Notes: generated by a model from the sequence alone, not told the origin. A stretch of DNA of 64,000 nt from Candidatus Wallbacteria bacterium (GCA_041441465.1 JASDSY010000029.1:72197-136196), one strand, 5' to 3'; shown: positions 3,504 through 34,918, counted from the stretch's first letter. Numbers and translations are program-made.

Positions 3504-3535
3504 ATTGCAAATATTGAATAAGGGATGGTTCTTAA

Positions 3536-14200: not shown

Positions 14201-16429
14201 CAGGTTAAAATAAGGGGATTCAGGATAGAAATCGGCGAAATCGAGGCTCAGATGCAAAAACACGAGCAAATCGAGGCTGTGCTCGTGCTCGCCAAGGAAG
14301 ATGAATCCAAAAATAAATATTTGTGCGCGTTCTATTCGTCGAATGAAGAAATACCTAATTCGGATTTAAAGGCGTTTCTTGCTAAATCGCTCGCTAATTA
14401 TATGATTCCGTCATTTTTTGTGTGGGTAAAGGATATGCCGATCAATTCCAGCGGCAAAATCGACCGCAAGACTCTCGAAAAACTTGAAATTAAAAAGCCG
14501 GTTGAAGTTAAAGTCGATCCGCAGAATGAAAAGGAAGAAAAAATCGCCAGGGTCTGGCGCGAGGTATTAAATATTCAAAAGATCGGCATTAATGAAAATT
14601 TCTTTGAAATAGGCGGCCACTCTTTGAAAGCGGTTGCTGCGGTCGCTAAAATGCAAAATGATTTTGACGTTACGATTAACGATATTTTCAAATACCAGAC
14701 AATATTTGCGCTTGCCGCTAATTTAAAGGATAAGAAAGGTAGTCTTTCAGGAAAACTTGCTGAGATCAAGGCTAAGTCGGCGGAAATATCCAAAAAATCC
14801 GCTGAATTTATGGAATCAAAATGGTATCTTGATTTTGTTAAACAATATCAGGAAAAAAATAAGAAATACGAAAAAATTGATATCCATAAAAGAAAAAACT
14901 ATAAAGCTGTTTTATTGACAGGTGCTACAGGCTACCTTGGCGTATATTTGCTGCACGATTTGCTGAAATATTATAAATGCGATATTTATGTTCCGGTAAG
15001 AGGCAAGACCGACGGCGACTCTTTGAGAAGGCTTAACGAAAAATACCGTTACTATTTTAATTCGGAATTGACCGCCGCGCAGCTTGAACGGGTTAAGGTA
15101 ATATGCTGTTCGGAACTGCAGGATGAAAACCTCGGAATAGATAAAGCAATTTATGATAAATTAGTGGATACCGTCGACTGCGTAATTAATCCGGCCGCAA
15201 ACGTTAAACATTACGGCCGCTATGAGGAATTTTACGCGCCGAATGTCGGGGCTGTGGCAAATCTTGTTAAATTCGCGGCGTCAGGCATCAAAAAAGACCT
15301 GCATCATGTATCGACTGCTTCTGTGGCCAGCGGTTATATCGAAGGTACGGATTTTTCCGCGTTCTGCGAAGATACCTGCAATGTCGGCCAGAAATCTGAC
15401 AACCTTTATATAATTACGAAATTAATGGCCGAGGAGCTGGTCATTAAAGCGCGCGCCGAATTTGGCATTAACACGAACATATACAGGGTCGGCAATATCT
15501 CGTTTAATTCTGAAACAGGGCATTTGCAACAAAATGTCGAGGAAAACGCCTTCAGCACCATGGTCAAGTCGTTCGTCAACCTGGGCGTTGTACCGCAATC
15601 AGATGACATGGCCGAACTTTCGTTCGTAGATAAGACGAGCGCCGCAATTTTAGTTTTATTCGATAAGGCGAACCTTTTGAACGAGACTTATCACATTCAT
15701 AATTCAAAGCCTGTTAAGCTTTCCGATATATTGACTTCAAAAAAACTGGGCCTGTCCGTCGAAGCCGTCCCGTTGGAAACATTTATCGACAGACTTGGCG
15801 AGCTCGATAAAAAAGAATGCTTCAGGCAGCATGTTCAGAATTTCATGCTTCACCGCGGCTGGCTTTCGGAGTCTGGGCCTGAAACGCAGTTCGCTCTGCA
15901 TTCCGAACGTACGTTCATGCTCTTAAAAATGCTCGGCTTCGAGTGGCCTGAGCTTGACGAGATGAAACTTATCCAATTAATAACAATGTCGCTTAAGGAC
16001 AGAATAAAATTCATAATGGATTCGGAATTATTCAATAACATTCCATACACCGTACAGCGTGAGCTGGCATTCATTTCAAGGGAATTGGCGGTCGACGAAA
16101 ACGATACGCTGATATGGGAAGATAATGAATGCGAGAATATGTATATGATTGTCGACGGCGTCGCTGAAATCCAGAAAAGTTCAAAAAGCGGATGGGTTGG
16201 CACTATTATGGTCGCATCTGCCGGCGATGTCATCGGACTTGAAGCGCTGCTTGATAAAAAATCAGGAACGACGGCGGAAGCTATTATGGGCGATTTGACA
16301 ATACTAGCTTTTGATAAGAAAAAAATTAACTCGATATTAAAAACGGCGCCTGAACTTTGCTACAACCTGTTTAAGTTCGCTAACGCGCAGAGCGGAAGAA
16401 TGGCGGGAATGATCGCGAACTTCGCTTAA
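8273..16429 (+). CDS. Bimodular nonribosomal peptide synthetase: C-A-T-T / C-A-T-R plus a C-terminal cNMP-binding-like domain
   Basis: 2718 aa. C1 HHIIFDG at nt 8681-8700. A1 core LAYIIYTSGSTGKPKG at nt 10058-10105. PCP1 FFKIGGHSLKA at nt 11186 and PCP2 FFSIGGHSIKA at nt 11507. C2 HHIIFDG at nt 12071. A2 LSYLIYTSGSTGKPKG at nt 13469. PCP3 FFEIGGHSLKA at nt 14600. Thioester-reductase Rossmann motif LLTGATGYLGVYLL at ~nt 14911. Crp-like beta-roll (YMIVDGVAEI...AGDVIGLEALL) at ~nt 16040-16400. SD-like ggtggag lies upstream of the ATG. Confidence 0.95.
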   Translation: MNNQKNQVYYEISHAEKRMFYLQKFYKDTTMCNIPHTVLFDKPVDFPLLNRAINIFIKNNQNLRIRFCEINDEPKQYFSDFSETNFEIINFSAAEAMEKWAAAKSLETFGDLYEKDLYKIVLINLGDKRGGFFVNFHHIIFDGMSFAFFTDKIYEYYGKLLNNENIPEEKFTLYSEYLKDENAYLNSKSAQDDLKYWKNIFSTDVEQLELKPGADNTSIDIKRNYHRVSNELNDKIYKYCSKNNISVYKLFMACLYTYYNRLTQKEDLVISTTHHNRSEGFKKTTGMFISTLPLRLKFSPDITFKELLTLYLNEFDEMMKHQKYPTDMLISELRNEKRDIENVFNIMAAAYIKSDNSKINVKSYANSNSVSAVTYFISYNNKEKLPVELMIDYKTSIYNENEASLMAGHIFNILNAVTGDDNIKINKIDFLTDSEKRRLINEFNDTAAYYPADKTFIDIFDEQVIKTPNKKAVVYLDKSYTYLELYNRAEKLAHKLRGLGIKRDDIVSIFVDRSLEMFVAAVGVLKAGGAFMPIDTKYPADRIEFMLADSQSRVFLTQKHLIEKAKFDGTIIDLDDQSLYSADCPKVNNVNKPQDLAYIIYTSGSTGKPKGTMIEHGSLLNFSFWSKNFHNLTENDNTAKHASFGFDASIVEVFPPLIAGCEIHIISEDIKLSLVELNEYFEKNKIRYAFLTTQLAEQFMENIDNKSLRWLDTGGEKLRTFKKRDYQLVNVYGPTECTVYTTAFQVNKNYENIPIGKPLSNAKIFITDRFGNLMPEGYCGELCVAGVCLSRGYLNRPETTAEKFIECPFSPKERMYKTGDLVRWLPNGDIEYIGRIDNQVKLRGFRIELGEIEQEIMKIDGIKTSAVTVISEGDNKLLCAYIVSESKISDDVIKNTLTATLPEFMIPSYIVRLETMPVNASGKIDRKALPAPNIKIETQSAYVAAEGEIETRLLKMWKETLGIENFGVCDNFFKIGGHSLKAVMLQAKIERDFGVRVPVRKIFEAATIRLQAELIKAEKSGTSNIDLERLAAEQSSGKKVIERGMASVYIEPATNTEKALIKIWEELLNVDGVGTGDNFFSIGGHSIKAVTMQYKIEKEFKARIPVKDIFKAPTIRELAVLIDGAEKVSAIETSVSLGDKNYYPSSSVQKRLFMIEQKDGSSTTYNIPMAMRIKGRLDDSRLSDSIEKMIERHEALRTSFAMIDGEPMIKINKDVKLKKIYQKAEESELGDIMKDFLKPFDLTKAPLFRIKLVKISDENHVLLIDVHHIIFDGMSLEIFMKELFEIYSGQTLPALEYQYKDFVAWQQKYLKSNKMIEQEKAWLEMLSGELPVLNMPTDHARTAEPGLAGAQYDFFIEHELSSKLKNYANKTQSTLYMVFLSALNIMLSKYCSQEDIIVGSPLLGRPTIESQQMLGMFVNTMPVRNYPKPDKKANEFIDEVKRNFFNVIDNQDYQLDTLIEKLNIKRESSRNPLFDVIFVFQTSQGIKDTRYGDIMVSPGTIETGTAKFDLSLQAYEAGDYIKCMLEYRCSLFEPDTIKRMSMHLSNILEQIADNPEIALKDIELITDSEKKTVLYEFNMNDMDYPKDKTVHELFEVNAELYPDRGAVVYKDKKYTYRELNERANMLARCLIKNGVKPRGFVALISEKSAEVALCALAIQKAGACYVPIDPSYPQDRIEYMLGDTASNVVLCQKELIDKVPFNGVKINIDDESIYSGASDERKNLDIKVNPEDLSYLIYTSGSTGKPKGVMIEHRSIINLCWWEINKYKLTHEDKITQYVSICFDPSVGCEMFLSLLAGAELHVVAPELRMDPVKLNEYMEKNKVTFSILPTQFYEQFSELTDNKSLRYLMVGGEKLKAYKKANYKLINAYGPTEYTVVTTAFNVEKDYENIPIGSGVANSRLYVLDKYNKLMPVGVYGELCISGDGLARGYLNRPELNSEKFPADPFLEGKKMYRTGDLVRWLPDGNIEFNGRIDFQVKIRGFRIEIGEIEAQMQKHEQIEAVLVLAKEDESKNKYLCAFYSSNEEIPNSDLKAFLAKSLANYMIPSFFVWVKDMPINSSGKIDRKTLEKLEIKKPVEVKVDPQNEKEEKIARVWREVLNIQKIGINENFFEIGGHSLKAVAAVAKMQNDFDVTINDIFKYQTIFALAANLKDKKGSLSGKLAEIKAKSAEISKKSAEFMESKWYLDFVKQYQEKNKKYEKIDIHKRKNYKAVLLTGATGYLGVYLLHDLLKYYKCDIYVPVRGKTDGDSLRRLNEKYRYYFNSELTAAQLERVKVICCSELQDENLGIDKAIYDKLVDTVDCVINPAANVKHYGRYEEFYAPNVGAVANLVKFAASGIKKDLHHVSTASVASGYIEGTDFSAFCEDTCNVGQKSDNLYIITKLMAEELVIKARAEFGINTNIYRVGNISFNSETGHLQQNVEENAFSTMVKSFVNLGVVPQSDDMAELSFVDKTSAAILVLFDKANLLNETYHIHNSKPVKLSDILTSKKLGLSVEAVPLETFIDRLGELDKKECFRQHVQNFMLHRGWLSESGPETQFALHSERTFMLLKMLGFEWPELDEMKLIQLITMSLKDRIKFIMDSELFNNIPYTVQRELAFISRELAVDENDTLIWEDNECENMYMIVDGVAEIQKSSKSGWVGTIMVASAGDVIGLEALLDKKSGTTAEAIMGDLTILAFDKKKINSILKTAPELCYNLFKFANAQSGRMAGMIANFA

Positions 16430-16464
16430 ATAATTTCGGGTGCGATCGAATAATCGAATGATAT

Positions 16465-16510
16465 AAAACGGCTGGAATTTTATAATTAATAGGATTCCAG
16501 CCGTTTTTAC
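16465..16510 (+). terminator. Rho-independent terminator after the NRPS gene
   Basis: cggctggaat...attccagccg hairpin followed by tttttac. Confidence 0.6.
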
Positions 16511-16751
16511 TTTTAATATCAATAACTTAATTTCACACCTTAAAAGTGTATGTGAGTAATGATTTTAAAAATTAATAAAATTTAGTTTTTAGCATTTGAC
16601 TTCAAAATCAATCGTAAATATGCTGGTTAAAAAATATAGATTGATGTAATAATAATAATAATGGTTTCGCTATGCCAAACTTAAGTCGATAAGTTGAACT
16701 AATTATTGCATATTTCGAAAAATTGATTATTATCTTATATACATGTTCATA

Positions 16752-17462
16752 TTATAAAAATTGCAGCTTTTCTAAATCTATATAATTGATTTCGTATGAT
16801 ATATTTTGATTGCCGCAGGCGCAAAGCGCCGCTTTATAGCCTTTAAAATCGTTTATTCGCTTGAAATTGCAGTTGGTATTAAAACCCATTTGGCACGAAA
16901 CTTTTATGCTGTCATCGTTAAAGTCTAAGACAAATTTTGTAGGTTCGAGTGATAAGCCGGTGCCAAGGTATTTTATGTAACTTTCTTTAAGTGTCCATAA
17001 TTCATAAAAGTAATCGATTTGGGAATTTTTGGGAATGCTCTTGAATCTTTCGCATTCTTCCGGTGAAAAATAACTGCCGTTCATACTTAAATCGACAGGT
17101 TCTATTTTTTCTATGTCGATGCCCACTTCACTATCATAAAAAGCTAGTAAAACAAAATCTCCGGAATGTGAAATATTAAAGTAAAAATCATTACGGCCCT
17201 TTAAATAGACTTTTCCATTGGCATTTTTTTCTAACTCAACATTAAGCGGGCCGATATTCAGATTTTTCATAAGAGAATGCTTTAATAATAATATCGCGCC
17301 AATCGAGCGCAATGAATCGGCCTCGAACCTGAATGAATTAACTTTCATTTTTTCATCGCGGTTTAAAATACCGGAATAAAGGCCGAGAAGATGGCTGATC
17401 GAATTATTTTTTATGCATGCTGCGTATATTTTGATGCCGGTCATGGTCAAAATATAACACAA
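16752..17462 (-). CDS. Sfp-type 4'-phosphopantetheinyl transferase
   Basis: Motifs GKVYLKG...FNISHSGDFVLLAF and VGIDIEKIE fit PPTase motifs (GKP / FNxSHS / GxDxE). The true start may be the internal Met at 17444. The gene sits next to the NRPS. Confidence 0.75.
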   Translation of the reverse strand: MCYILTMTGIKIYAACIKNNSISHLLGLYSGILNRDEKMKVNSFRFEADSLRSIGAILLLKHSLMKNLNIGPLNVELEKNANGKVYLKGRNDFYFNISHSGDFVLLAFYDSEVGIDIEKIEPVDLSMNGSYFSPEECERFKSIPKNSQIDYFYELWTLKESYIKYLGTGLSLEPTKFVLDFNDDSIKVSCQMGFNTNCNFKRINDFKGYKAALCACGNQNISYEINYIDLEKLQFL

Positions 17463-17544: not shown

Positions 17545-20223
17545 ATGCAAAAGCTACCAATTATTATTCCGGAGTACTATAAATTAAGCAATGGATTTTC
17601 AATCTGCCTGTGCGGCAATTTTCCTTATAAATCCTCGCAAATATCGGTTTTATTTTTGTCTAAATGCGGGCTTTATTCAGAAACTCCTGAAAAGGCCGGA
17701 ATTACACATGCTCTTGAACATATGCTGTTTAAAGGCACGAAAAAACACAGCAATTTTGAATTTATGGCCGAAATTAACTCTCTGGGCTCGTCAGTTGACG
17801 CTTTTACAGCCGCCGATTCAATGTGTATCGAACTTATGTCGCCGGCTGATAATTTCGAAAAATCATTTTCACTATTTTCAGATTTGATCTTAAACCCGGT
17901 ATTCCCTGAAAAAGAAGTCGAGCTTGAAAAGAAAGTTGTAATAAATGAAATTCTTTTTTATGAGGATGATCCTGAAGATTTGCTGACGCTGCGCCTCGAA
18001 AGTGAATGTTTCAAAGGGACATGTTATCAAAATCCAATACTTGGAACGCGAAACAGTGTTAATTCGTTGACACGCGAAGAATTTCAAAAATATCATAAAG
18101 ATTATTTCACTCCGGAAAATTGCATGATGACTGTTATCGGCGATTTTAACGAACCTGAAATGGCCGGATTTATCGAGAAGTTTTTCGGCGAAAAAAAATG
18201 GAAACGTTCAAAGACCGGCCCTAAATATTTTAATTTAACAAATATAAACGATAAACCGACGCACAGCGTTATAAAAAGACTTGATAAGTTTTCACAAAAT
18301 TATCTCGGCTTCTCATTTGTGCTGCCGCCCTCGATCGCCGGAATTGATTCGTCGGCCATGATTTTGCCTTATGTGTTCAGCTCATTGAAATCATCGCCGC
18401 TCGGCTTTTTACTGCGCGAAAAAAATAATATCGTAAATGCTTTTAGCGCCGATTTGATATTTAAGCAGGGCGCATGGATGATGTCTCTTATCGCTTCGTG
18501 TGAGCCGCGTTATATGAATAAGGTTAAAAATATTATTCTTAATTTTATAAAAAGAGCTTCGTCGCTTGTTTCCAGAGAATTATTCGAAAGCGCCAGGAAT
18601 TTAATATTGCTCGATTACTTTCAGGAAATCGAGACTGCTAAGAATTATTGCAATGAACTTACCACATTTAACCATATAATCGGCGAAACTTCCTATAACA
18701 AATCTATCGAAAATCTTCTTAAAATATCATACGAAGATTTTCTTGATTATCTTTCTAAATATGTTGAACCGGCAGTTTTACATTTTGTCGAAATAATTTC
18801 GAAAGAAGTAAATTCATTTAAACACAATGCGGAATACATAAAACTTAAAAATCCTGACTTGGGCAAAGCTAACGCCGCAAATTTCGGATATGAAAATTCA
18901 TTCTATAAATTAAAAAAATATAACCCTAAATTATCTGCGGATGTTTCATGCAATACGGATAATCCGGCAAGACCTATTATCTCAACCATAGATACATCAT
19001 TGTTGTACTCAACCCTTAATATGTGGATCGAGGGCGGTGTCATAGCCTCACAAATACCCGGAGACGCTTATATTTTTAGCGAATTATTCGGCAAAAAAAC
19101 TCACTTATTGTCAAGTTATGATAATTTTATAAAAAATGACTATCTCGGCATATATTATGACTGCAACATATTTCTTGATTATGTCCTTATAGAAGCCGTC
19201 TGCCCTGGTAAATTTACCGGCGATAAAATAAAAAGGCTCGATGAATTTCTAAATGATTTTGATTTTACAGGCGATATGCTGAAAAAAGCCAAGCAGGTCG
19301 TTAAACGTTCAGTTGCAGGCGTTTATGACGATGTGTTCGAATATCCGTTCTGGAATTTCATTAAAATCCTTTTCGAAGGTAAATGCTATTCAAAATCAAT
19401 ATTCGGTAATGAAAAGTTTTTGTCTGAAATCAACGCGGAAAACGTTATTAATTATTATAACAACCTCAAAAACAGCTCGTCGAGATATTGCATTTCATAT
19501 TCAGCGGCCGTAAATTCAGCCGAAATTATAAAAAATAATCTTTCTTATATTAATTTATCAAGCCGGCGTCCGTTAGATATAAATCCCAATATGCAGGGCG
19601 GCAAATTAATTAACGGCTGTTCCAATATATTCAATAAATTTGATAAAAACGCTTTTTTAAACTCCGGTATCGGCGGCAAAACCATTGAAATAAAGTCAAG
19701 GCAGCAGCAGGCTACCGTTTTAATAGGCGGTTACGCTCCTGAAATCGCTAACGGCGATTCATTGGCTTTTTCTATAGCTAATTATATACTCGCCGATTAT
19801 ACCGGTAAAAGATTATGGGATCTGCGTGAATCCCACGGCCTGTGCTACAACATATTTTCTGAATATATTCCGTTGGCATACTCCGGCGTGTTTTTTTGCT
19901 ATGCCAATACCGACATAAATAAACTTGGTACCGTCGCCGAAAAAATATGCTGCGAACTAGATAAGTATTGCGCTGACGGCCCTACCGAAAAGGAAGTGGC
20001 TGAAGCTAAAATGCAGCTTATAAAGAAGATGGAGCTGGGGCTTAATTCGAGTGCCAGCCTGTCAAAAGCTGCCGGTAGTTCCATATTTTACGGCAAAACG
20101 CTGAGTGAATTCCTTGAATATAAAAAACGTATCGAAAGCGTTGAAGTGAATAAAATCAACGCGGTCATAAGAAAATACATGTCACCAAAAAAATTGCTTA
20201 CTTTAAGGGTTTTGACTTCATAA
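17545..20223 (+). CDS. Two-unit M16-family zinc metallopeptidase (pitrilysin-like; inverted zincin HxxEH)
   Basis: 892 aa. The inverted zinc motif GITHALEHMLFKG lies near residue 56, and the length fits a fused active plus inactive M16 unit. Confidence 0.8.
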   Translation: MQKLPIIIPEYYKLSNGFSICLCGNFPYKSSQISVLFLSKCGLYSETPEKAGITHALEHMLFKGTKKHSNFEFMAEINSLGSSVDAFTAADSMCIELMSPADNFEKSFSLFSDLILNPVFPEKEVELEKKVVINEILFYEDDPEDLLTLRLESECFKGTCYQNPILGTRNSVNSLTREEFQKYHKDYFTPENCMMTVIGDFNEPEMAGFIEKFFGEKKWKRSKTGPKYFNLTNINDKPTHSVIKRLDKFSQNYLGFSFVLPPSIAGIDSSAMILPYVFSSLKSSPLGFLLREKNNIVNAFSADLIFKQGAWMMSLIASCEPRYMNKVKNIILNFIKRASSLVSRELFESARNLILLDYFQEIETAKNYCNELTTFNHIIGETSYNKSIENLLKISYEDFLDYLSKYVEPAVLHFVEIISKEVNSFKHNAEYIKLKNPDLGKANAANFGYENSFYKLKKYNPKLSADVSCNTDNPARPIISTIDTSLLYSTLNMWIEGGVIASQIPGDAYIFSELFGKKTHLLSSYDNFIKNDYLGIYYDCNIFLDYVLIEAVCPGKFTGDKIKRLDEFLNDFDFTGDMLKKAKQVVKRSVAGVYDDVFEYPFWNFIKILFEGKCYSKSIFGNEKFLSEINAENVINYYNNLKNSSSRYCISYSAAVNSAEIIKNNLSYINLSSRRPLDINPNMQGGKLINGCSNIFNKFDKNAFLNSGIGGKTIEIKSRQQQATVLIGGYAPEIANGDSLAFSIANYILADYTGKRLWDLRESHGLCYNIFSEYIPLAYSGVFFCYANTDINKLGTVAEKICCELDKYCADGPTEKEVAEAKMQLIKKMELGLNSSASLSKAAGSSIFYGKTLSEFLEYKKRIESVEVNKINAVIRKYMSPKKLLTLRVLTS

Positions 20224-20245
20224 ACATTTTTTTAATATTTTTATA

Positions 20246-20766
20246 CGGGGGACACAAAGGGTTTAACCCTTTGATTTCCCCCGCACCCCCTCTTTAATCC
20301 TGCTATATCTACCGTTGCTTTGGGCGATTCTATCGTTTTATTTTGTGATTTTTAATATTCGCAAAGCGCGGCCTGCGCCGCTTACTTTGCGAATATCCAG
20401 CAATCGGCCGCGAGAATTTATCATATATTTACGCTATATCGTTTGCGGCCGAAGGTGAAGAAACATGAATGGCTGAAGCTTTTCCTCGGCACGTGAAACG
20501 TGCTAACACAGACTTCAAAGTATCTTGTAACTGCATTTCGCGTAAGCTTATGCGTGAGTATCAGCTTACGCGATTGCTGAATTTGTGCAAAGGAAACAGT
20601 TTAGAAACAAAATAAAAAAGCACTATTGATATAATAAAAATAATACTCTAAAAAACTTTTTACGAGTGAACGACTTCCGCAGGCGCACTTGTGGTCGAGG
20701 GTCGGGCTTGGCGCCGAGGACCAAGTGAACGAGAAAAAAGTTTTTTTATTCCTTATCCGCCCCCTT
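20246..20766. repeat. Structured GC-rich noncoding element, copy A, in the convergent gap after pilO
   Basis: No ORF. 5' nested G-rich hairpin gggggacacaaagggtttaaccctttgatttccccc. Decamer aatcctgcta at 20296-20305. Bulged hairpin at 20355-20396. Further perfect stems at 20404-20451, 20489-20503 and 20539-20572. 3' motif ccttatccgccccc at 20751-20764. Copy B at 25031-25445 is homologous. Confidence 0.6.
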
Positions 20767-20812
20767 TATGTAAAAGTCACAATAGCTTCGTGAATGGAAA
20801 GAAAAAAAATAT

Positions 20813-21385
20813 TTATTTTTTTAATATTTCGTTAAGGTTAATTTTCCCTGACGGCGAGTAAAAAGAATAAGAAATTAATGTCGGTGCGTCACTTAGTTCT
20901 TCTATTGTGATAGATTCCGTGAGTGCTCTCCTGTTTGAGCATATATTGGCAGATATATTCAAGAAATCTGAAATTTTGATATTTTTGATGTTCAACGTGC
21001 CGCTTAATGATTCCATAAAAGCGAAAGTTTTGATTCCGTAAGTTAATTCATAATCAGGTACGGCGGTTACTTTTTGAATTATTTCCCTGATATTTCGCTG
21101 CTTTATTTCGATAGTCTCGGTCGAAGCATTTTTTGAAACCGTGTCTGAAATGATATTTATGTCTTTTAATAGATTTTGTTTTTCGCTGTTTAATGCGCCG
21201 GCTTTTGTTTCAGCCTCTTGAGCGCGGCTTTCGAGCGATTGTGCGGCCTGCTTTAATGACGCCGCATCGCTTCTTTGCGGAAGCACGACTATTATTCTGA
21301 AAAAACCGACAAGCAGAAGGATAAAGGTGTTTATCGCGATTATATAAATGATTTTATTTTGAATGCTATCGTTCAAATATTTCAT
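20813..21385 (-). CDS. pilO: PilO-like type IV pilus inner-membrane assembly protein
   Basis: 190 aa with a single N-terminal TM helix then a coiled-coil region. It is the last gene of the pilC-B-M-N-O order. The sequence assignment is weak and rests on context. Confidence 0.45.
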   Translation of the reverse strand: MKYLNDSIQNKIIYIIAINTFILLLVGFFRIIVVLPQRSDAASLKQAAQSLESRAQEAETKAGALNSEKQNLLKDINIISDTVSKNASTETIEIKQRNIREIIQKVTAVPDYELTYGIKTFAFMESLSGTLNIKNIKISDFLNISANICSNRRALTESITIEELSDAPTLISYSFYSPSGKINLNEILKK

Positions 21386-22031
21386 CCCCTTTGATTTTAA
21401 TGATTACGCGCGCAGAAACGCCGTTAAGATTTGATCCTGAGGCTGCCGGAGTGTTTGTTCTGGTTTCGGCGTATTCGTTATTTATGAAAACGCTTTCGAC
21501 CCATTTTATTTTTTTGAGCTGCTCAATAAATGCTGAAAGAGCGTTCATATTTTTAACTGTTATAAAAAAGCTGCCCGTTAAGCTGCCGAAGTTAATGTTG
21601 AAATTTTTAACGCTCAATATTTCAGGAATATTCCTGCGTATCTTCAGAATGTCGTTAACTATTTCCGTATCGTTTGTTTTGCGGCTTGTCAGTGAACTTT
21701 GCGAATTTTTCAGGCTTTCTTTAAGTTTAGATATTTTTGTCTTTACCTCGTCGCTTATTGCTATCTCGGCGCTTTCGCCTGAAAACATTCCGCCAGCCCT
21801 GACAGTATTATTTTTTAGCGCCTTTTCATGCTGGTTTATTTTTGACTGCAGCGCTGAAATTTTTAAATTCGCGTCGTAAATTTCGCCTTTATAATCGTAA
21901 TAACTATACATCGAAAATATGAAATAGAGGAACGGAATAATTGAAATACCGTATTTAACGGCTTTGAATGACAATGAATTTTCATTCATTGCCGGCCTGG
22001 CAATTTTAAAATCCATTTTTATGCTTTTCAT
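21366..22031 (-). CDS. pilN: PilN-like type IV pilus inner-membrane assembly protein
   Basis: 221 aa with a TM helix (ISIIPFLYFIFSMY) plus coiled coil, downstream of pilM. It overlaps pilO by 20 nt. Confidence 0.45.
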   Translation of the reverse strand: MKSIKMDFKIARPAMNENSLSFKAVKYGISIIPFLYFIFSMYSYYDYKGEIYDANLKISALQSKINQHEKALKNNTVRAGGMFSGESAEIAISDEVKTKISKLKESLKNSQSSLTSRKTNDTEIVNDILKIRRNIPEILSVKNFNINFGSLTGSFFITVKNMNALSAFIEQLKKIKWVESVFINNEYAETRTNTPAASGSNLNGVSARVIIKIKGDEIFER

Positions 22032-22108
22032 TTTTGCTCCGATTCTTCCTTAAAATTTTACAATGCTATCTATAATTTAAATATATTCTTTGTGTTATTG
22101 AAAACAGG

Positions 22109-23086
22109 CTAATTTGTGCCGTCGAATAGTAACGGCGAATATTGTATTTTTTCGGTATTTTCCAGAAGTTTTATGTTAACAGCCAGAAAATTTTCTAAAA
22201 ATAATTTAATATTGGGTGTTTTTCCGAATCCGCCTGAGATTACTATTTCAGAAAGTTTTATATGCGGATATTTCGATATAAAAAACTCGTAGGTTATATG
22301 CAGTTCCTTTAAAAACTTGTCAGTTGCCTTAAGTTTATGTGATTCAAACTCGGAAAGCGAGTTGAAGTCGATTTTATCCGGAAAGATTTTATGTTCCGAT
22401 ATTTTTTTTGCAGATTCGCTTTTGGAAATTGGATGTTTAAGTTCGAGTGTTTCTATTATCTCATCGGCGAAATGCCTGCCTGCTGTTTCTATTATCCTTA
22501 CATAAACCGGTTCTGAGTCCACGAAAAAATAAAATGTGGTAACCTCATGGCCGATGTTTAATAGTCCGAAATTTTCCTTTAAAATTCCATTTTGTGAAAT
22601 GAAATTATATATTGCATGACACGACATATCGATTGACATAATTTTTATTTTCGCGTTTTCGAATAACTCGGTCAATTTATTTATCAATTCTTCTTTTACA
22701 AGGCAAACGTAGCAGTCGGCGTATAATTTGCCGGTTTCGATGTCTTTTTCGGTTTTGCATATATGCGCGTCTATTTTACAGCCGCTGTAAACTTCCTCGC
22801 GGATCTGGTCGCGCGCGCGCCAGAGGATATACTCTTTTGTGTATTCGGCCGGTAAATCGTTTACTCTTACGAATATCTGCCGCGCCCACTGGTCAGGCAG
22901 AAGAAGGTTGATTTTGGTTATTCCCTCTTTCCTTAATTTTTCAATATATCCGGCAAGTTCGGTTTCGTTTATTTGCGGAATTGTAAAAGTGCCGCCGATA
23001 ACGTCATTTCCAAAAATATATTCGTGAAAATTTCCGTTTTTTGTGTATTTAAGGCTGTATCCGCCTATGTCCACGTTAGAAACCAC
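22109..23086 (-). CDS. pilM: PilM, actin-like type IV pilus assembly ATPase
   Basis: 325 aa. N-terminal VDIGGYSLKY (actin-fold phosphate-1) and C-terminal ISGGFGK, in the pilB-pilM-pilN order. Confidence 0.7.
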   Translation of the reverse strand: MVSNVDIGGYSLKYTKNGNFHEYIFGNDVIGGTFTIPQINETELAGYIEKLRKEGITKINLLLPDQWARQIFVRVNDLPAEYTKEYILWRARDQIREEVYSGCKIDAHICKTEKDIETGKLYADCYVCLVKEELINKLTELFENAKIKIMSIDMSCHAIYNFISQNGILKENFGLLNIGHEVTTFYFFVDSEPVYVRIIETAGRHFADEIIETLELKHPISKSESAKKISEHKIFPDKIDFNSLSEFESHKLKATDKFLKELHITYEFFISKYPHIKLSEIVISGGFGKTPNIKLFLENFLAVNIKLLENTEKIQYSPLLFDGTN

Positions 23087-23109
23087 GGGACGCTCCTTTC
23101 TAACTGCGT

Positions 23110-24981
23110 TTAATCTTCAAATGTAACTCTGTTAATTTCCTCGATTGTAGTCATGCCTTCGATGACTTTTGCCCAGGCAGCCTGCCTGAGAGTTTTCATT
23201 CCTTCACTGATTGCCTGGCTTTTAATTTCAAGCGGCGACGCTTTTTTTAATATCAGCGACTTAATTTCATCGGACAAAGCAAGTGTTTCATAAATGCCGG
23301 TGCGCCCTTGATATCCGGTATTATGGCAGTAACGGCAGCCTTTGCCCCTATATAATTTACGGCCGCCGCAATATTTTTCAAAATCGCTAATTAGGGCCGT
23401 AGTTTCTTTATCAGGAACATATTCCTCTTTGCAGTTCGAGCATATTTTCCTGATAAGGCGCTGTGAAATGATCAGGTTAAAAGATGCGGCGAATTGGTAA
23501 GGTTCGACACCCATATTTGTAAGACGCGCTATAGCGTCTATTACGTTATTGGCGTGTATCGTCGAAAGTACAAGATGGCCTGTTAATGCTGCATTGACTG
23601 CAATTGCGGCAGTTTCGGTATCGCGTATTTCGCCTATCATGATTTTATCCGGGTCCTGTCTTACAATCGAACGAAGTCCAGACGCGAACGTCAGACCCTT
23701 TTTTTCGTTGACGTTAACCTGGACTATATCGGGTATCTGGTATTCTACGGGGTCCTCTATCGTAATGAGTTTGTCTTCAGGTGTTTTAATCGCTTTAATG
23801 GCCGAATAAAGCGTCGTGGTTTTGCCCGAACCTGTCGGCCCAGCCGATAAGATCATTCCGTAAGGTTTGAATATGTTTTTTTTGAATTTAAGCATATCTT
23901 CAGACGGGAATCCGAGTTTTTCAAGGTCAAGGCCGACCGCGTTCTGGTCTAAAATTCTTATTACGACGGTTTCACCAAAAATGGAAGGCAGTACGGATAC
24001 TCTGAAATCTATGTTTCTGTCGTCGATATATGCCTTAAAACGACCGTCCTGCGGCACGCGTTTTTCTGAAATATCGAGATTAGCCATATTTTTAATTCGC
24101 GATACTATAAAGTTCCGCGATTTTGGATCGATTTTTTTCACGTTAAAAAGCGCGCCGTCGATCCTGAATTTAACTTTCATTTCTTCTGGATAGATCTCAA
24201 TATGAATATCTGATGCTTTTTTGCGTATGGCTTTTATTAATATAGAATTAACCGTATTAACGATAGTCGCGTCGGAATATGTCTTGAGAAATTCCATATC
24301 GCCTTTATCATCGGTATCGTCTTCGCTGAGACTCTTTATAGCGACTGTTTCTTCGGTTTCAGAAAATAACGCGCTTTCACTTAATGAAGTTTCGGCCACA
24401 AGGTTGATCACTCTCATAATTTCGGATCTTACAGCTACGTAAGAAATTGTTGGAATACCTATTATCGACTCGATTTCTTCGATGCGTTCCACATCTGACG
24501 GGTCGTCCATTAATATTATTAATTTGTCGCCCTCTTTTTTGTATGGTATGAAGTTATAACGTCTGACAATGTTTATATCGAATTGGGAAAAAAGCGCGTC
24601 GTCAATTTTCATTTCGCTTAAATCTATGAATTCGGTTTTATGCTGAATGGCTACGGCTTTATAAAGATTTTTAGGCTTAATAAGTCCGCGGTCAACGATC
24701 AATTCTTTTAAATTTAACGGCATGCCGTTAAATTCATTTATTATTTTTTCGAGCTCGAAAGGCGAGAGCATTCCTTCGGAAATCAAAACATCCTCGAGCG
24801 AATGTGATTTCATGGCATAAAAATAATATTTATATGCGTCGTTTTCGTCCAATAAAACGCCGTCAGCAATTAAATTTTTTAATCCGTCTTGAAAATCTTT
24901 TGTAACCAGCTCATTGTAATTTTCAAGGGTGATTTTGCCTTTTAATTTAAGCTCATATAATATCTTTTCCCAGACTTTCAT
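23110..24981 (-). CDS. pilB: PilB/GspE-family type IV pilus assembly ATPase
   Basis: Walker A GPTGSGKTTTLYSA, Asp box, His box and the tetracysteine CSNC...CRYC motif are present. SD ggaggc lies upstream. Confidence 0.9.
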   Translation of the reverse strand: MKVWEKILYELKLKGKITLENYNELVTKDFQDGLKNLIADGVLLDENDAYKYYFYAMKSHSLEDVLISEGMLSPFELEKIINEFNGMPLNLKELIVDRGLIKPKNLYKAVAIQHKTEFIDLSEMKIDDALFSQFDINIVRRYNFIPYKKEGDKLIILMDDPSDVERIEEIESIIGIPTISYVAVRSEIMRVINLVAETSLSESALFSETEETVAIKSLSEDDTDDKGDMEFLKTYSDATIVNTVNSILIKAIRKKASDIHIEIYPEEMKVKFRIDGALFNVKKIDPKSRNFIVSRIKNMANLDISEKRVPQDGRFKAYIDDRNIDFRVSVLPSIFGETVVIRILDQNAVGLDLEKLGFPSEDMLKFKKNIFKPYGMILSAGPTGSGKTTTLYSAIKAIKTPEDKLITIEDPVEYQIPDIVQVNVNEKKGLTFASGLRSIVRQDPDKIMIGEIRDTETAAIAVNAALTGHLVLSTIHANNVIDAIARLTNMGVEPYQFAASFNLIISQRLIRKICSNCKEEYVPDKETTALISDFEKYCGGRKLYRGKGCRYCHNTGYQGRTGIYETLALSDEIKSLILKKASPLEIKSQAISEGMKTLRQAAWAKVIEGMTTIEEINRVTFED

Positions 24982-25030
24982 TTTGCCTCCGGTATGAACT
25001 AATTAGGTTTTATTTAATATTGATTTAAAG

Positions 25031-25445
25031 TCAGGGAAAGGCGAAGGGATTATCCCTTCCCTTTCCCTGAAACCCTATCCAATCCTGCTACTTTTTTGTT
25101 CTTAATCATCGCGAAGCGCAAATTTCATTTGCTTACTTCGCGATGATCCGGCATTCAAAATGAAACTGTTATTCATAACAGTTTCATTTTGAAACGAAGA
25201 GTTCAGATTTCCACATCGTTTTTTTATCAAATTGTTACGCATTTCGTGGCGTTCGACTGCAAACGATAAGTATGGATAATCTGAAAAATTTCACGCAGTC
25301 GATTGCCATGTTACATCAAACGCCGCGCGTTTGATGTAACTAAAAACGCAAAAAAATATAATCCGCCATCACAACGGTAGAAATAGCGGGAGTCACAGGG
25401 GGAAATGGGGGAGATAGAGGGCCATTGGCCTTCTGTCGCCCCCAT
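25031..25445. repeat. Structured GC-rich noncoding element, copy B, between pilC and pilB
   Basis: No ORF. 5' nested hairpin cagggaaagg-cgaagggat/tatcccttc-cctttccctg. Decamer aatcctgcta at 25081-25090. Bulged hairpin at 25105-25147. 19-bp palindrome at 25154-25193. 13-bp-arm hairpin at 25310-25338. 3' motif ccttctgtcgccccc at 25429-25443. Confidence 0.6.
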
Positions 25446-25468
25446 CAAAATTCCCTGGTAATAATTTA

Positions 25469-26692
25469 TCAATTAACGATAGTAGCCGCACCGATCATTG
25501 GAAGAAGGATAGCTATAATAATAACACCAAAAATTCCAATTACGCTTATTAATATAATCGGGCCGAACGCTGACTCGAGCGTGTTTATAATATCGTCAAG
25601 TTCGCTTTCCATAGTTTCCGAGATATGTTTAAAGACTTCGGGCAGATTATTGGAGTCTTCGCCGGCTTTGATGAGGCCGGGAATAAAACCGGCCGCGAAA
25701 TTCGACTGCTCGAATGAGTGATAGATAGAATTGCCGGTCTTAATGCTTATGACGGCGTTTTTGAGCCGTTCCAGTATTATGTTGTTACTGATGACATTCT
25801 GACTAACTTCGATCGCGCTAATGACATTTATGCCTGAATTTATAAGTAATCCGGCTGTTTTATAATATATAGCTAAAGTTTTTTTATAAATGAATTGATT
25901 GATTACAGGAAGTTTAAGTGTAAATTCGTCGATAATACGAGCGGCTTCCGGAGTTTTTTGCCATCTATATATTACGTAAACAAGAAGGCCTGACATAAGG
26001 AGAAGCTGAAAATAGAATTTAGCGATAATATCGGCGATAAAAAATACGAATTCAGAAACGGGCGGAAGATTGGCATTCATTTCCGAAAAAAGTTTTGTGT
26101 ATGTGGGGACGATGCTTACGAAAAGGTAGCTTACGGCGATAGTGCTTAAAATCATTATTATCAGCGGATATAAAGAAGCTGATAATAATTTTTTTTGAAG
26201 CGCCTGTTTTTTCTGGTAGTAATTGCGCAAATTATCGAGGGCCGGGCTTAAGTTGCCGGTAGTTTCGGCGCTCGCGATGGTTTTAACGAAAAGTTCGTCG
26301 AATATGTCGCCGCGCCGCGACAGTGCTATTGAAAGCGGGATGCCGTGCGCGACTGAAGTTTTGATATCATTTATTAACTCTGCGGAATAGCTGTCCGGGG
26401 ATTTTTCCGATAATGCTTTAAACGCCTCAGTAACTGACATGCCTGAATTTAAAAGCATCGCTAGTATTCTTGAAAATTCGATTATATATGAATTCTTCTT
26501 GAATTTAAATTTCAGTGCCTGCAGATTTTCGTATGTGAATACATTAGAAAATCCCGACTGGCTTTTTTCGATTTCGAGAGGAAAATAGCCCTGATTGGTA
26601 AGAGCTGCGCAAACTGCCTCGCGCGTCTCGCCTTCGATAGTAAATTGTTCGGTTTTACCCTGCCTGTCGGCGACTTTAACTTTATAATTCAT
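25469..26692 (-). CDS. pilC: PilC/GspF-family type IV pilus platform protein
   Basis: 407 aa with two T2SSF-type repeats and three TM segments, upstream of pilB on the same strand. Confidence 0.85.
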   Translation of the reverse strand: MNYKVKVADRQGKTEQFTIEGETREAVCAALTNQGYFPLEIEKSQSGFSNVFTYENLQALKFKFKKNSYIIEFSRILAMLLNSGMSVTEAFKALSEKSPDSYSAELINDIKTSVAHGIPLSIALSRRGDIFDELFVKTIASAETTGNLSPALDNLRNYYQKKQALQKKLLSASLYPLIIMILSTIAVSYLFVSIVPTYTKLFSEMNANLPPVSEFVFFIADIIAKFYFQLLLMSGLLVYVIYRWQKTPEAARIIDEFTLKLPVINQFIYKKTLAIYYKTAGLLINSGINVISAIEVSQNVISNNIILERLKNAVISIKTGNSIYHSFEQSNFAAGFIPGLIKAGEDSNNLPEVFKHISETMESELDDIINTLESAFGPIILISVIGIFGVIIIAILLPMIGAATIVN

Positions 26693-26882
26693 TATTTTGC
26701 CTTTTTATAAAAAAATGCATAATTTAGGGATTATTATACATCATTTAAGTTACTTTTACAATGTATTAATAAAAATAACTAAATTTTGAGTATTTAACCT
26801 ACAATATGCACTAAATAAAATTGAATTTACTATTTTTTTACTTTACAAAAAGAATATTTGTGATATTATTAAATTTTTATAA

Positions 26883-27140
26883 ATGTTTAATAATAAAATT
26901 GAAAAAATAGAAGATGCTTATAATAAGTATATCCTGATAGAAAAGTATTCATACATTTCAAGTATAGATAAGATACGTGAGAATGAATTTAATCTCAATA
27001 TTCCTCGTTATGCCGATACTTTTACAGGAGAAGAACACGTTGACATGGATGCTGTAAAAGAAAATATCGAAAAAAATTGAGGACGAACTTAAAGGCATAA
27101 AAGCGCAAATGAATAAATACCTGAAAGAACTTGGTTTATA
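26883..27140 (+). pseudogene. hsdM: Remnant of the C-terminus of a type I R-M M subunit (HsdM), frameshifted
   Basis: ENEFNLNIPRYADTF, VDMDAV and KENIEK resemble the conserved HsdM C-terminal tail (dynLsvsrYv...). After the stop, the next frame continues IEDELKGIKAQMNKYLKELGL, which is also HsdM-tail-like. No N-terminal methylase domain is present. Confidence 0.45.
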
Positions 27141-27652
27141 AGCGAATTAGCGCATTTATTAAAATTGCGACAGCCTGTTGCAGAATTTAATATTAAGATT
27201 ATAAAGGGTTTATGTGGCATTACTAGTGAAATCACGAATTAATTCATTTAAAATATAGAAACCATGATAAAAATTTCCATTATTTCTTAATGGTTTTAAT
27301 GCCTGATTGGAAAAAGAGAAAAGAAATTTTAGATCAAGAAGTTATTAAAGAATTATAAAATGTTACTAATTGCGAGGCTTAACAGTGTGCTTGCTTGCGG
27401 TTGCGTACCGTTCTTTTGGAAAAAAGTTTACAATCCAACTTTTAGTTGTAGCAAATTCGCCATAATCAAAAGTCAGGCTGGTTTGAATAGTTATAAATTG
27501 AGCGTTACCGAACGGACTGAAAAAACAAATGCTATCGGATTGAAGGCAGCTGCCGTACGATATGGCGGAATATATATTACATAAAGATATTGCCTTTGAA
27601 TTTGGAATGTGGATTAGCGCTGAATTTAAGATATATTGTAAGGCGGTCAGTT

Positions 27653-28411: not shown

Positions 28412-28548
28412 TATACCAAAGTAAGTACTTTCGACTAAAAAGTGGAAATGAATTAACAGATGATAGTTTAAAAATAAAGTGTTATCACTTAACTTAAATA
28501 TTTAAAATAATAAAATAGTAATAATGCGCTGATATAAAATTAAATTAT

Positions 28549-28600
28549 AAAAAAAAGGGGGCTGTTTCCAAAATTATCTTTTGGGACAGCCCCTTTTTTG
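28549..28600. terminator. Bidirectional terminator, conserved-loop family member 1
   Basis: A8-ggggctgtttccaaaattatcttttgggacagcccc-T6 between convergent genes. Confidence 0.6.
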
Positions 28601-28630
28601 TGATAATGTTATTAATTATAGTAGTTTTTA

Positions 28631-30663: not shown

Positions 30664-30933
30664 TATCACTCCTGTCTTTAAAATTTATCCGGATGGTTTT
30701 AGTCATGTTATCATATATCATAAGAAATTTAAAGTCAAATTTTTAGAACCGGTTTTTTTTGCCTGAATATAACCTTAAACTGTGGATAATTAAAAATTAA
30801 AACCGGATATTATAAGTTAAGGCACACATAAATAAATTAAGCTGAAGCAGCGAATCATAAAAAATAAATATGCTGTGTAATAGCTTTAACTTCATACTTT
30901 TCTTGAGATAATGCCCAATTTAAAAATAATATA

Positions 30934-30980
30934 AATAAAAAAAGCTGTTTCGAAAATTATTTTCGTTACAGCTTTTTTGT
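30934..30980 (-). terminator. Terminator, conserved-loop family member 2
   Basis: aaagctgtttcgaaaattattttcgttacagcttt flanked by A and T runs. Confidence 0.55.
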
Positions 30981-34615: not shown

Positions 34616-34835
34616 TTAAAAACAGAATCAAGGTCTGGCATACTGGCCGCCATAAAAAGTAAATGTATGAAAATAGTATTGAAAACTTTAAATTATAAAC
34701 AATAAATATTCAAATGATAACGTAAAAATTAAAAATTACTTTAACTTAATTTATTCATGACCAAATATATTGAAAAATTAAAATAACTAAATGAATATTT
34801 TTAGCGGAAGCATATTACAATAAGTATAAAACAAA

Positions 34836-34883
34836 ATAAAAAAGACTGTTTTGAAAATTATGTTTTCATACAGTCTTTTTTAT
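34836..34883. terminator. Bidirectional terminator, conserved-loop family member 3
   Basis: aagactgttttgaaaattatgttttcatacagtctt followed by T5, between convergent genes. Confidence 0.55.
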
Positions 34884-34918
34884 TTTGTTTTATTATTTAA
34901 GATTATATTATTTTTATA

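Follow-up and report, generated by a model that had tools for sequence, protein, structure and literature searches.

A lineage-specific, non-coding stem-loop module occurs in three diverged copies in a type IV pilus gene cluster of 'Candidatus Wallbacteria'

Introduction

Small structured repeats of the ERIC, Correia, RUP and BOX types number in the tens to hundreds per genome, the copies being fairly similar; they have defined terminal inverted repeats, often with TA duplications, and can alter processing, stability or termination when they lie inside operons. ERIC/IRU, Correia (CREE/NEMIS), RUP and BOX-type small structured intergenic repeats are covered by reviews (PMC2229807, PMC10969869). 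Here we analyse a module located within the type IV pilus gene cluster of an uncultured 'Candidatus Wallbacteria' MAG, in a 64-kb stretch of DNA referred to as the window. Like these repeats, the modules are short, non-coding and restricted to intergenic or intercistronic sites, occur in both orientations, are predicted to form stable stem-loops upon transcription and appear as insertions relative to related genomes. They differ in that there are three copies of ~65% identity in one 5.3-kb segment, each made of several local hairpins rather than one long fold-back, and no target duplication was found for them.

A second group of systems, comprising REP/BIME, REPINs with RAYT, the ends of IS200/IS605 elements and PATEs, shares with the modules imperfect palindromes with bulged bases, strand-asymmetric folding, inverted pairs and a position just past stop codons. 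However, within a genome the 20-40 nt REPs share a conserved sequence that includes the 5' GTAG, and IS200/IS605 ends keep both the hairpin sequence and the cleavage tetranucleotides, whereas the hairpin sequences of the modules are almost wholly different between copies. No Y1 transposase or TnpB was found among the scanned ORFs of the window.

Like integron attC sites, the modules conserve structure over sequence in an imperfect palindrome whose centre varies, and extrahelical bases occur in two of the copies. On the other hand, the modules have no R''/R' cores, their bulges are not universal and their orientations are mixed, neither intI nor attI was found in the window, and the flanked genes are core operon genes instead of cassettes. 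The modules also resemble the Qrr, RsmX/Y/Z and PrrF sRNA families and structured 3'-UTR elements in having paralogous copies, compensated variable stems and conserved single-stranded linkers, and, as in multi-copy sRNA families, two copies converge on a common terminator-like palindrome. In contrast to those families, the copies do not all share a conserved promoter or terminator, and the modules fall below every Rfam gathering score.

Results

The starting point of this analysis was a bulged hairpin, here called hp2, which an earlier note had described at two sites, those of copies A and B (Table 1). The letters given there are exact: hp2 reads ATATTCGCAAAG-C-GCGGC-CTGC-GCCGC-TTA-CTTTGCGAATAT in copy A and ATCATCGCGAAG-C-GCAAAT-TTC-ATTTGC-TTA-CTTCGCGATGAT in copy B. 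We also find, as reported, that the outer stems differ at positions 3, 4 and 9 only, each change being compensated on the opposite arm, that the inner stems pair perfectly in both copies with no sequence kinship between them, and that each hairpin sits between TTAAT and ATCC. Folding as RNA bears the hairpin out, with -24.5 kcal/mol for the + strand of A and -23.7 kcal/mol for that of B (z = -4.5 and -4.8), values which none of 200 shuffles equalled. The - strands reach -32.2 (A) and -26.3 (B) kcal/mol, and the structures are unchanged under DNA parameters. The core pattern TCGCRAAGC-N(6-30)-TTACTTYGCGA has two matches in the 64-kb window against 0.00 expected; perfect hairpins with a stem of at least 12 bp number eight against 0.43 in Markov-simulated windows (~20-fold excess), and hp2 elements of the copies described below, A, B and C, make up three of the eight. 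The flagged hairpin is real, and it belongs to a small non-coding module as one of its stem-loops.

The module is present in three copies rather than two: the additional copy C is inverted, adjoins copy B and is the nearest relative of copy A. The hairpin hp2 is the second stem-loop of this lineage-specific module of 170-230 nt, in which a G/C-rich hp1 is followed by a conserved linker (AATCCTGCTA / TCTACCGTTG), TTTTTAAT, hp2 and ATCC-GCAATCG, and then, in A and C only, by hp3. At the position of the linker motif shared by A and B, copy C reads GACTCCCGCTA. The three copies are homologous, as seen by blastn of A against C (229 nt, 64.6% identity, E = 2e-15), by local alignment of A with B (score 67 against a null of 27 +/- 3), and also by nhmmer and local alignments across the set. 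They have diverged to about 65% identity, the linkers retaining 65-80% between copies. No shared or conserved ORF was found in the modules, the open frames of A and C falling in different registers. Scans of genome and metagenome collections with strict patterns returned copy A itself and chance matches only.

Table 1 Positions of the module copies and their parts in the window.
Feature	Position	Strand	Composition	Evidence
Module copy A	20224..20463	+	hp1, linker, hp2, hp3	blastn, nhmmer, local alignment
hp1 of A	20246..20283	+	G/C-rich; 7 bp, internal loop, 8 bp	ViennaRNA, inverted-repeat scan
Linker motif	20296..20305	+	AATCCTGCTA, identical in A and B	
hp2 of A (flagged hairpin)	20355..20396	+	12 bp outer stem, C bulge, 5 bp inner stem, TTA bulge	
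hp3 of A	20404..20452	+	TCGGCCGCG ... (T)GCGGCCGA, loop ~30 nt	RNAalifold, folds
Module copy B	25005..25156	+	hp1, shortened linker, hp2; without hp3	nhmmer, local alignment
hp1 of B	25031..25070	+	11 bp, C bulge, 7 bp	folding
hp2 of B (flagged hairpin)	25105..25147	+		
Central palindrome	25154..25193	.	perfect, 19-bp, between inverted B and C	inverted-repeat scan
Module copy C	25242..25451	-	hp1, linker, hp2, hp3; inverted vs A and B	
hp1 of C	25404..25446	-		folding
hp2 of C	25310..25340	-	GTTACATCAAACG / CGTTTGATGTAAC, perfect 13-14 bp stem	covariance model, folds
hp3 of C	25253..25302	-	TCGACTGCG ... TGCAGTCGA	RNAalifold, folds
pilC-pilB spacer	24982..25468	-	487 nt; contains C, palindrome, B	

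That pairing rather than sequence is maintained, as had been proposed from A and B, is borne out by the third copy: a covariance model built from A and B only recovers the hp2 of copy C (25349->25298, - strand) as its third-ranking match window-wide, with E = 5.8e-4. In the three-way hp2 alignment, whose covariation is drawn from three sequences of one species, all 44 of 44 cells are paired (100%), and nine of the 17 pairs are altered on both sides while none is altered on one side only. When the 3' partner is slid by 1-3 columns as a control, pairing falls to 31-54%. Between A and C, in the register of the model, six of the 11 aligned outer-stem pairs differ and all six are compensated; hp3 adds two doubly changed pairs (G-C to A-U and C-G to U-A, RNAalifold), and the inner stems of hp1 differ between copies. 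Stems are less conserved than linkers, in modules whose overall A-C identity is 65%. All stems stay paired despite largely replaced sequence.

The extrahelical bases, which the earlier note had taken to be fixed, hold in two of three copies only, because the hp2 of copy C is a plain 13-14 bp stem below a loop of 3-5 nt. It lacks the bulged C, the TTA and the inner stem, which is the outcome that had been named beforehand as refuting the claim. The hp2 flanks, TTAAT...ATCC in A and B, are TTAGT...CATGG in C.

The loose analogy with attC is not supported either. In its full form it would make A and B, direct repeats 4.7 kb apart with a bulged imperfect palindrome and a variable centre, recombination sites of attC-like or other site-specific type bracketing a cassette of pilB and the pilM-, pilN- and pilO-like genes. 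A regex search found no GTTRRRY or RYYYAAC core on either strand within +/-20-40 nt of hp2 in A, B or C, copy C is inverted and has no bulges, and the ORFs of at least 100 aa that were scanned across the 64 kb yielded neither an integrase nor a recombinase. No break in composition marks the segment, and its genes are those that normally follow in the pilC operon, in the order found in relatives; we regard this reading as close to refuted. It is also very improbable that the hairpins are palindromic operators for a dimeric DNA-binding regulator of pilus genes. A and B do share a half-site core, TCGC(A/G)AAG / CTT(C/T)GCGA, but the stem of copy C is unrelated in sequence at the homologous position, an operator would give the inner stems no reason to pair, and copy A has no downstream gene to regulate.

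We compared the sites of the modules with those of related genomes. Copy A occupies the space between the pilO-like gene's end and the M16 peptidase gene that converges on it; the M16 stop codon (20221-20223) is immediately 5' of the copy, and pilB and the pilM-, pilN- and pilO-like genes, which relatives show in the same order, separate it from copy B. Copy C starts ~22 nt past the pilC stop codon (25469-25471); both A and C begin just past a stop codon (about 22-25 nt) and are oriented like the upstream gene. The pilC-pilB gap, 487 nt here, is an overlap or 17-23 nt at the seven nearest-relative loci (L015-L022), and in relative L027 a gap of 3 nt separates the M16 gene from a convergent gene downstream, with no module at the site. 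The modules are missing from the equivalent sites in the nearest relatives; since the pilC-pilB gap of the relatives is tiny or absent, we take them to be lineage-specific insertions or duplications. Short, non-coding and inserted relative to empty sites in relatives, they are in these respects like MITEs and structured intergenic repeats.

This setting raises the alternative that a mobile element read as folded single-stranded DNA, such as an IS200/IS605-type PATE, a REPIN/RAYT-like element or another MITE, gave rise to the modules, which would be its ends or derivatives. The hairpins would then be kept because a transposase reads their structure, and the copies would be insertions from diverged subfamilies. 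HUH/Y1 enzymes read imperfect palindromes, and the bulged hp2 of A and B and hp1 of B are reminiscent of their substrates. Insertion relative to every relative examined, the inverted pair formed by B and C about a palindrome, and hairpins that are equally good with DNA parameters all fit such an origin, as do the two ends of Logan contig L023, one within each spacer, although the L024 and L025 assemblies are uninterrupted through the region. However, the scanned ORFs of 100 aa or more in the 64 kb include no transposase, RAYT, TnpB or integrase, and neither the remaining 59 kb of the window nor 3.7 kb of flank has a further copy. Enzymes of this kind usually depend on conserved hairpins and cleavage motifs, whereas the hairpin sequences vary between copies, and no cleavage motif (e.g. 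GTAG or TTAC) of the kind expected for REP/REPIN-RAYT or IS200/IS605-PATE systems is common to the copies at a fixed distance. Neither a target-site duplication nor a sequence-level terminal inverted repeat was found at the module edges, and B and C, homologous modules in opposite orientations, do not align directly as inverted repeats by blastn or local alignments. At 65% identity with perfect stems, each copy would moreover have to be a recent arrival from a separate master copy. We consider this origin unlikely.

Transcription signals were then considered. No sigma-70-like promoter was found on the pil strand from the palindrome to pilB, and pilB is therefore probably transcribed through the spacer. 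There is no T-run after hp1 or hp2 on either strand, so that these hairpins are not canonical terminators; intrinsic (rho-independent) termination was rejected for both for want of a U-tract directly after the stem, and of the hp2 of A the terminator scan called only the inner stem, with a tail falling within the outer arm. The central palindrome, at which copy B ends, looks like a bidirectional terminator, with an A-run, a stem and a T-run. It folds to -21.7 kcal/mol on both strands and resembles the other A-run/stem/T-run hairpins of the window; the terminator scan left it uncalled.

If the modules were paralogous small-RNA genes with their own promoters, B (+) and C (-) would be convergent units sharing this palindrome as a bidirectional terminator, B being antisense to the pilB 5' UTR, and A would be a third unit 3' of the M16 gene. 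The convergent arrangement suits two transcription units, a sigma-70-like TTGACT-16-AATATT (9/12 matches) lies closely upstream of the hp1 of A, and a TTTAATATT block 5' of hp1 is common to A and B. Paralogous sRNAs typically have conserved unpaired linkers and variable stems, as the modules do. Against this, no promoter-like site was called for B or C, the candidate -35 of B seen by eye (ATGAAC) has 3/6 matches with a 15-nt spacer, and A has no clear terminator 3' of hp3. Rfam 15 gave no match over the window at gathering thresholds; the best match in E-value mode, BTnc231, is generic and multi-hairpin and scores 33 bits against a gathering score of 80. The G.U evidence for hp1 and hp2 points to the opposite strand. 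We consider independent sRNA genes improbable.

The strand evidence is itself conflicting: in A and B, G.U pairs speak for the pil-sense strand, in C for the antisense strand. The hp1 of A folds at -24.7 kcal/mol (+ strand) and -28.3 kcal/mol (- strand) in ViennaRNA. That of C has three 1x1 mismatches on the - strand, where it folds at -26.1 kcal/mol; on the + strand, at -33.3 kcal/mol, two of these become G.U pairs. A polymorphism in L010, C20280T, yields a G.U pair on one strand only, opposite to the strand otherwise favoured.

Finally, we compared strains. Strain L023, which is 98% identical, has eight changes across the 235-nt B region and none in its 110 stem nucleotides, an outcome with a chance probability of about 0.6%. 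In its central palindrome the middle 2 nt are inverted (TC to GA), and hairpin-mediated DNA events therefore occur at this locus. L025 is uninformative on strain variation because its entire pilC-spacer block is identical to the window. As for contiguity, the L024 and L025 assemblies continue unbroken across the region, and the Logan contig of L023 terminates inside both spacers.

The inverted centre bears on the proposal that the modules are functionless, decaying duplicated spacer DNA, in which a mutational bias keeps the palindromes perfect, one arm being rewritten from the other through intrastrand template switching or quasi-palindrome correction. An exact 2-nt centre inversion between strains is the signature of a hairpin-templated event, and transversion swaps, for which stepwise fixation needs a mismatched intermediate, account for many of the double changes in hp2. 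However, template switching perfects palindromes, and yet the asymmetric C and TTA bulges are co-located in A and B; hp3 covaries although its ~30 nt loop is non-palindromic; the linkers are conserved too, at the identities given above; and the strain changes spare all stems. Pure decay of this type appears improbable on balance.

Discussion

We favour, at a probability of roughly 40%, the reading that the modules are an ERIC/Correia-like structured intergenic repeat which, judging from the DNA, may act as RNA stem-loops in pil transcripts. In its favour are the homology of the copies, the compensated changes in hp2 and hp3, the missing modules at the sites of relatives, the strain changes that spare the stems, the placement of A and C past stop codons and the probable transcription of pilB through the spacer. 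Against it, there are only three copies, within 5.3 kb and in one species, the strand evidence conflicts, hp1 and hp2 lack U-tracts, and DNA-level template switching can maintain perfect palindromes without selection.

According to this RNA stem-loop model, the modules would descend from a small repeat that, like ERIC, Correia or REP elements, was inserted or duplicated locally, and would now be retained because their stem-loops act in the transcripts that cross them, namely the intercistronic RNA between pilC and pilB and the 3' UTRs of the M16 and pilO-like genes. A link of copy B to pilB expression is plausible because of its location in the pilC-pilB spacer. The stem-loops would likely serve as exonuclease barriers, processing sites or partial terminators, and in this way may determine mRNA stability and uncouple pilC from pilB, pilM and the next two genes.

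The hairpin hp2 and its three-copy module

The earlier note had described a bulged hairpin, here named hp2, in two elements, A and B. Read directly from the window sequence, both hairpins match that transcription exactly: each consists of an outer stem of 12 bp and a perfectly paired inner stem, separated by an unpaired C in the 5' arm and an unpaired TTA in the 3' arm, with TTAAT before and ATCC after. The outer stems of A and B differ at three positions and, as had been claimed, all three differences are compensated. Predicted RNA folds of the + strand reach -24.5 (A) and -23.7 kcal/mol (B), with z about -4.6, and those of the - strand -32.2 and -26.3 kcal/mol, the stronger fold arising because a U.G pair shortens the bulge. 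DNA folding parameters return the same shapes. The hp2 core pattern occurs twice in the window against an expected 0.00, and eight hairpins in the window have a perfect stem of 12 bp or more, against 0.43 in simulated sequence.

The flagged hairpin is real, and it extends to a module of three helices present in three copies. Alignment of the regions upstream of hp2 in A and B identifies a G/C-rich hairpin, hp1, and the common motif AATCCTGCTA. A third copy, C, lies on the - strand of the pilC-pilB spacer, inverted relative to B, and is the best homologue of A (64.6% identity over 229 nt, E = 2e-15; nhmmer E = 2.5e-13; local alignment score 111 against a null of 27 +/- 4). Common to A and C are a longer linker between hp1 and hp2 (GCTAT-TCTACCGTTG), the block GCAATCG that follows hp2, and hp3, a third helix; about 30 nt of the linker and hp3 are missing from B. 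Within the hp2 segment A and B are 82% identical, a closer pair there than either makes with C. Using nhmmer and a covariance model, we find no further copies in the rest of the window, in 3.7 kb of flank to its left or in the locus of any relative.

In every copy a short C-run comes 3-4 nt after hp1 and duplicates the last bases of the 3' arm of that hp1 (CCCCC for A and C, CCCT for B). Run and arm covary, so that the 5' G-run may have an alternative partner in the run.

Coordinates of the module copies, their stem-loops and neighbouring genes in the window
Feature	Coordinates	Strand	Remarks
Module A	20224-20463	+	
Module B	25005-25156	+	
Module C	25242-25451	-	
hp1 with trailing C-run, A	20246-20291		
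hp1 with trailing C-run, B	25031-25078		
hp1 of C	25404-25446		
hp2 of A	20355-20396		inner stem GCGGC/GCCGC
hp2 of B	25105-25147		inner stem GCAAAT/ATTTGC
Central palindrome	25154-25193		perfect, 19 bp; B and C converge on it
M16 peptidase gene	17545-20223		convergent with pilO-like gene
Small gene in pilO place	20813-21385	-	type IV pilus operon
Small gene in pilN place	21366-22031	-	type IV pilus operon
pilM-like gene	22109-23086	-	type IV pilus operon
pilB	23110-24981	-	type IV pilus operon
pilC	25469-26692	-	type IV pilus operon
PilB of the 'Candidatus Wallbacteria bacterium' MAG			MEZ7892628.1
Two tandem UbiA prenyltransferase paralogues	2652-4387		76% identical over 300 nt; part of a UbiD/UbiA/UbiE/flavoprotein cluster
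Secretin gene	36567-38921		
O-antigen-ligase/TPR fusion	38995-41538		
Second PilB/GspE-type ATPase gene	51587-53338		583 aa; DNA 69-78% identical to parts of pilB

Pairing is kept while the sequence changes

A covariance model built from hp2 of A and B only places the hp2 of C third in the window over both strands (E = 5.8e-4), in register. In the three-copy alignment all 44 of 44 cells are standard pairs, and 9 of 17 pairs are changed on both sides with none changed on one side; these counts lean towards structure, the alignment having been fitted to the model's own structure, and three sequences are too few for a phylogeny-aware significance test such as R-scape. Only one of 500 column shuffles attains these values, and sliding the 3' partner by 1-3 columns lowers the pairing to 31-54%. 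Double changes affect 7 of the 12 pairs of the outer helix. Between A and C, hp3 has two doubly changed pairs (CGGCCGC/GCGGCCG versus CGACTGC/GCAGTCG), and hp1 is a strong hairpin in A, B and C alike (-25 to -33 kcal/mol), although its inner helix in C is a different one. The linkers are more conserved in sequence than the stems, which argues that pairing, not sequence, is what is kept. Selection on structure is supported. That the modules serve as a palindromic operator is very unlikely.

Comparison of strains bears on the same question. A 98% identical contig (L023) differs by eight events in the 235-nt B region, none of which touches any of the 110 nucleotides that form the stems of hp1, hp2 and the palindrome, an outcome of about 0.6% by chance. 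One of the eight is an exact inversion of the 2-nt centre of the palindrome (TC to GA; window 25154-25193 versus L023:25-64). Such a flip is the mark of a template switch in a hairpin or of recombination between the arms, not of two independent substitutions. Template switching could also keep up the palindromes neutrally, a reading that we consider unlikely. In a 99.6% identical contig (L010), C20280T falls in the hp1 stem of A and leaves a G.U pair on the + strand only. A 97% identical contig (L025) matches the window exactly across the pilC-pilB spacer, which says nothing on constraint because the whole 24250-26777 block is nearly identical to the window. The pilM-pilN junction (22000-22250) is a strain-variable hot spot, where L025 has 51 differences, among them an 18-nt change in length, against 0-20 in most bins of 250 nt.

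Proposed fixed bulges and recombination sites

The hp2 of C is a plain stem of 13-14 bp with a loop of 3-5 nt. Of the proposed conservation of extrahelical bases, the part concerning A and B stands; C has no inner stem, bulged C or TTA, and fixed extrahelical bases are thus a feature of A and B only. The loose analogy with attC, the integron recombination site, does not survive. There is no attC core sequence near A, B or C, copy C is inverted relative to A and B, and from A to B the pil operon simply continues with its usual genes. The ORFs scanned, those of 100 aa or more, gave no domain of an integrase, transposase, reverse transcriptase or TnpB. The attC reading thus finds no support in the sequence and we have removed it; such a site is scarcely credible. 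A mobile element recognised as folded single-stranded DNA is unlikely. A fim-like invertible promoter was rejected, B and C having no exact or near-exact inverted repeat for a recombinase site.

Relatives and genomic context

Contigs of this Wallbacteria organism occur in SRR24078314, SRR9878565, ERR3438382, Ga0116193 and Ga0116255. B lies within the 487-nt pilC-pilB spacer and A within the 589-nt gap from the end of the pilO-like gene to the convergent M16 gene. The nearest PilB relatives are 61-70% identical, and in seven relative loci (L015-L022) pilC and pilB overlap or are 17-23 nt apart. Where relatives' contigs reach that far, minor-pilin genes directly follow the pilO-like gene; no homologues of these were detected in the window. 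The nearest M16 homologue (47% identity) has a convergent gene 3 nt after it. It follows that each spacer is, in this lineage, an insertion, a duplication or a rearrangement junction, and on the loci compared the modules are lineage-specific. Neither GC content nor skew shows a break at A or at B, on which ground a horizontally acquired cassette was rejected.

NRPS and phosphopantetheinyl-transferase genes (8273-17462) adjoin the pil cluster, as in L015:1-4414, where they are on the opposite side with the transferase inverted; this side swap indicates a rearranged pil neighbourhood, with A at one junction. Upstream of pilC, 26700-27300 is very AT-rich (24-28% GC), and a 65-aa fragment (ORF 26883-27080, +) matches N6_Mtase (Pfam) and is probably what is left of a restriction-modification gene.

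The other half of the pilO-M16 gap, outside module A (20600-20812), begins on the - strand with GGGGGCGGATAAGG, a sequence similar to the 5' arm in hp1 of C; it may represent an inverted partner of A that has decayed. The gap holds further hairpins at 20538-20573 and at 20650-20686 with 20711-20746. An extended -10-like TGATATAAT, seen by eye at about 20627-20635 (+), is not listed by the promoter scan.

Searches of public collections place the element in no curated RNA family. Rfam gave nothing meaningful, either at gathering thresholds over the whole window or in E-value mode over both spacers, and no tRNA or tmRNA was found. With an hp2 pattern too strict to catch diverged copies, public genome contigs yielded one chance match inside a high-GC coding region, and metagenome contigs yielded copy A itself (L010), GC-rich chance matches and one hairpin on an unrelated low-GC contig (Ga0136611_10059731, L007:1171-1227). 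This last, between convergent nucleoside-transporter and DinB-family genes, has the same outer-stem core TTTCGCAAAG/CTTTGCGAAA, a bulged C, a 5-bp inner stem and TTA; no module linkers or context surround it, and it may be due to chance because the pattern itself selected it. Three viral scans gave nothing or one chance coding match, and blastn against plasmids gave no match. In the pilB-pilM spacer of a relative (L019), GGCAATCG was set aside, since chance alone should produce a 10-of-11 match in as much DNA as was searched. A coding module was also rejected: small ORFs cross the modules with frames that differ between A and C, and the downstream ORFs of 46-48 aa have no similarity to each other.

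Strand and transcription

Wobble pairs favour the strand opposite to A's written orientation (- for A and B, + for C), as seen in hp1 of C (-33.3 versus -26.1 kcal/mol), hp2 of A (-29.0 versus -24.5) and hp2 of B (-26.3 versus -23.2); hp3 and the L010 polymorphism favour the other strand. A and C each start about 22-25 nt past a stop codon, in the orientation of the gene that it follows (M16 for A, pilC for C). Upstream of pilB the pil strand gave no sigma-70-like site, which suggests that pilB is transcribed through C, the palindrome and B. Sigma-70-like sites were called for A only, and no sigma-54 motif was seen by eye.

The central palindrome has the A-run/stem/T-run shape of other terminator-like hairpins of the window; it was not called by the terminator scan, and neither hp1 nor hp2 has a U-tract. 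Independent sRNA genes with this palindrome as their common bidirectional terminator are improbable. Three terminator-like hairpins (28538-28613, 30930-30978 and 34826-34893) have the common core (G/A)CTGTTT(C/T)..AAAAT, to which the palindrome core GAAACTGTTAT is related.

Interpretation

We favour, with a probability of about 40%, the reading of the module as a small structured repeat of intergenic DNA, of the same kind as ERIC, Correia and REP elements. Such a repeat would have entered the pil cluster by insertion or local duplication. Its stem-loops would since have been retained in place for their action in the transcripts crossing the modules, where they would affect processing, stability or partial termination at the pilC-pilB junction and at the 3' ends of two further genes, M16 and the pilO-like one. 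Families of this sort have been described (reviewed in PMC2229807, PMC10969869), and the module fits this known kind of element, with three copies in one species. It is decidedly unlikely that the module is instead an undescribed structured RNA of about 230 nt and three helices, specific to this Wallbacteria lineage, which as an sRNA or cis element would control the PilB ATPase and the downstream assembly genes, with the bulged hp2 of A and B as a protein- or RNA-binding platform.

If the modules act in pil transcripts, a small structured insertion can split the tightly coupled pilC-pilB junction and re-wire pilus expression in a candidate phylum without cultured members; if true, this would also contribute a motif, RNA or DNA, that Rfam lacks. 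For the present, the module is a clean small-scale case of pairing kept through sequence turnover.
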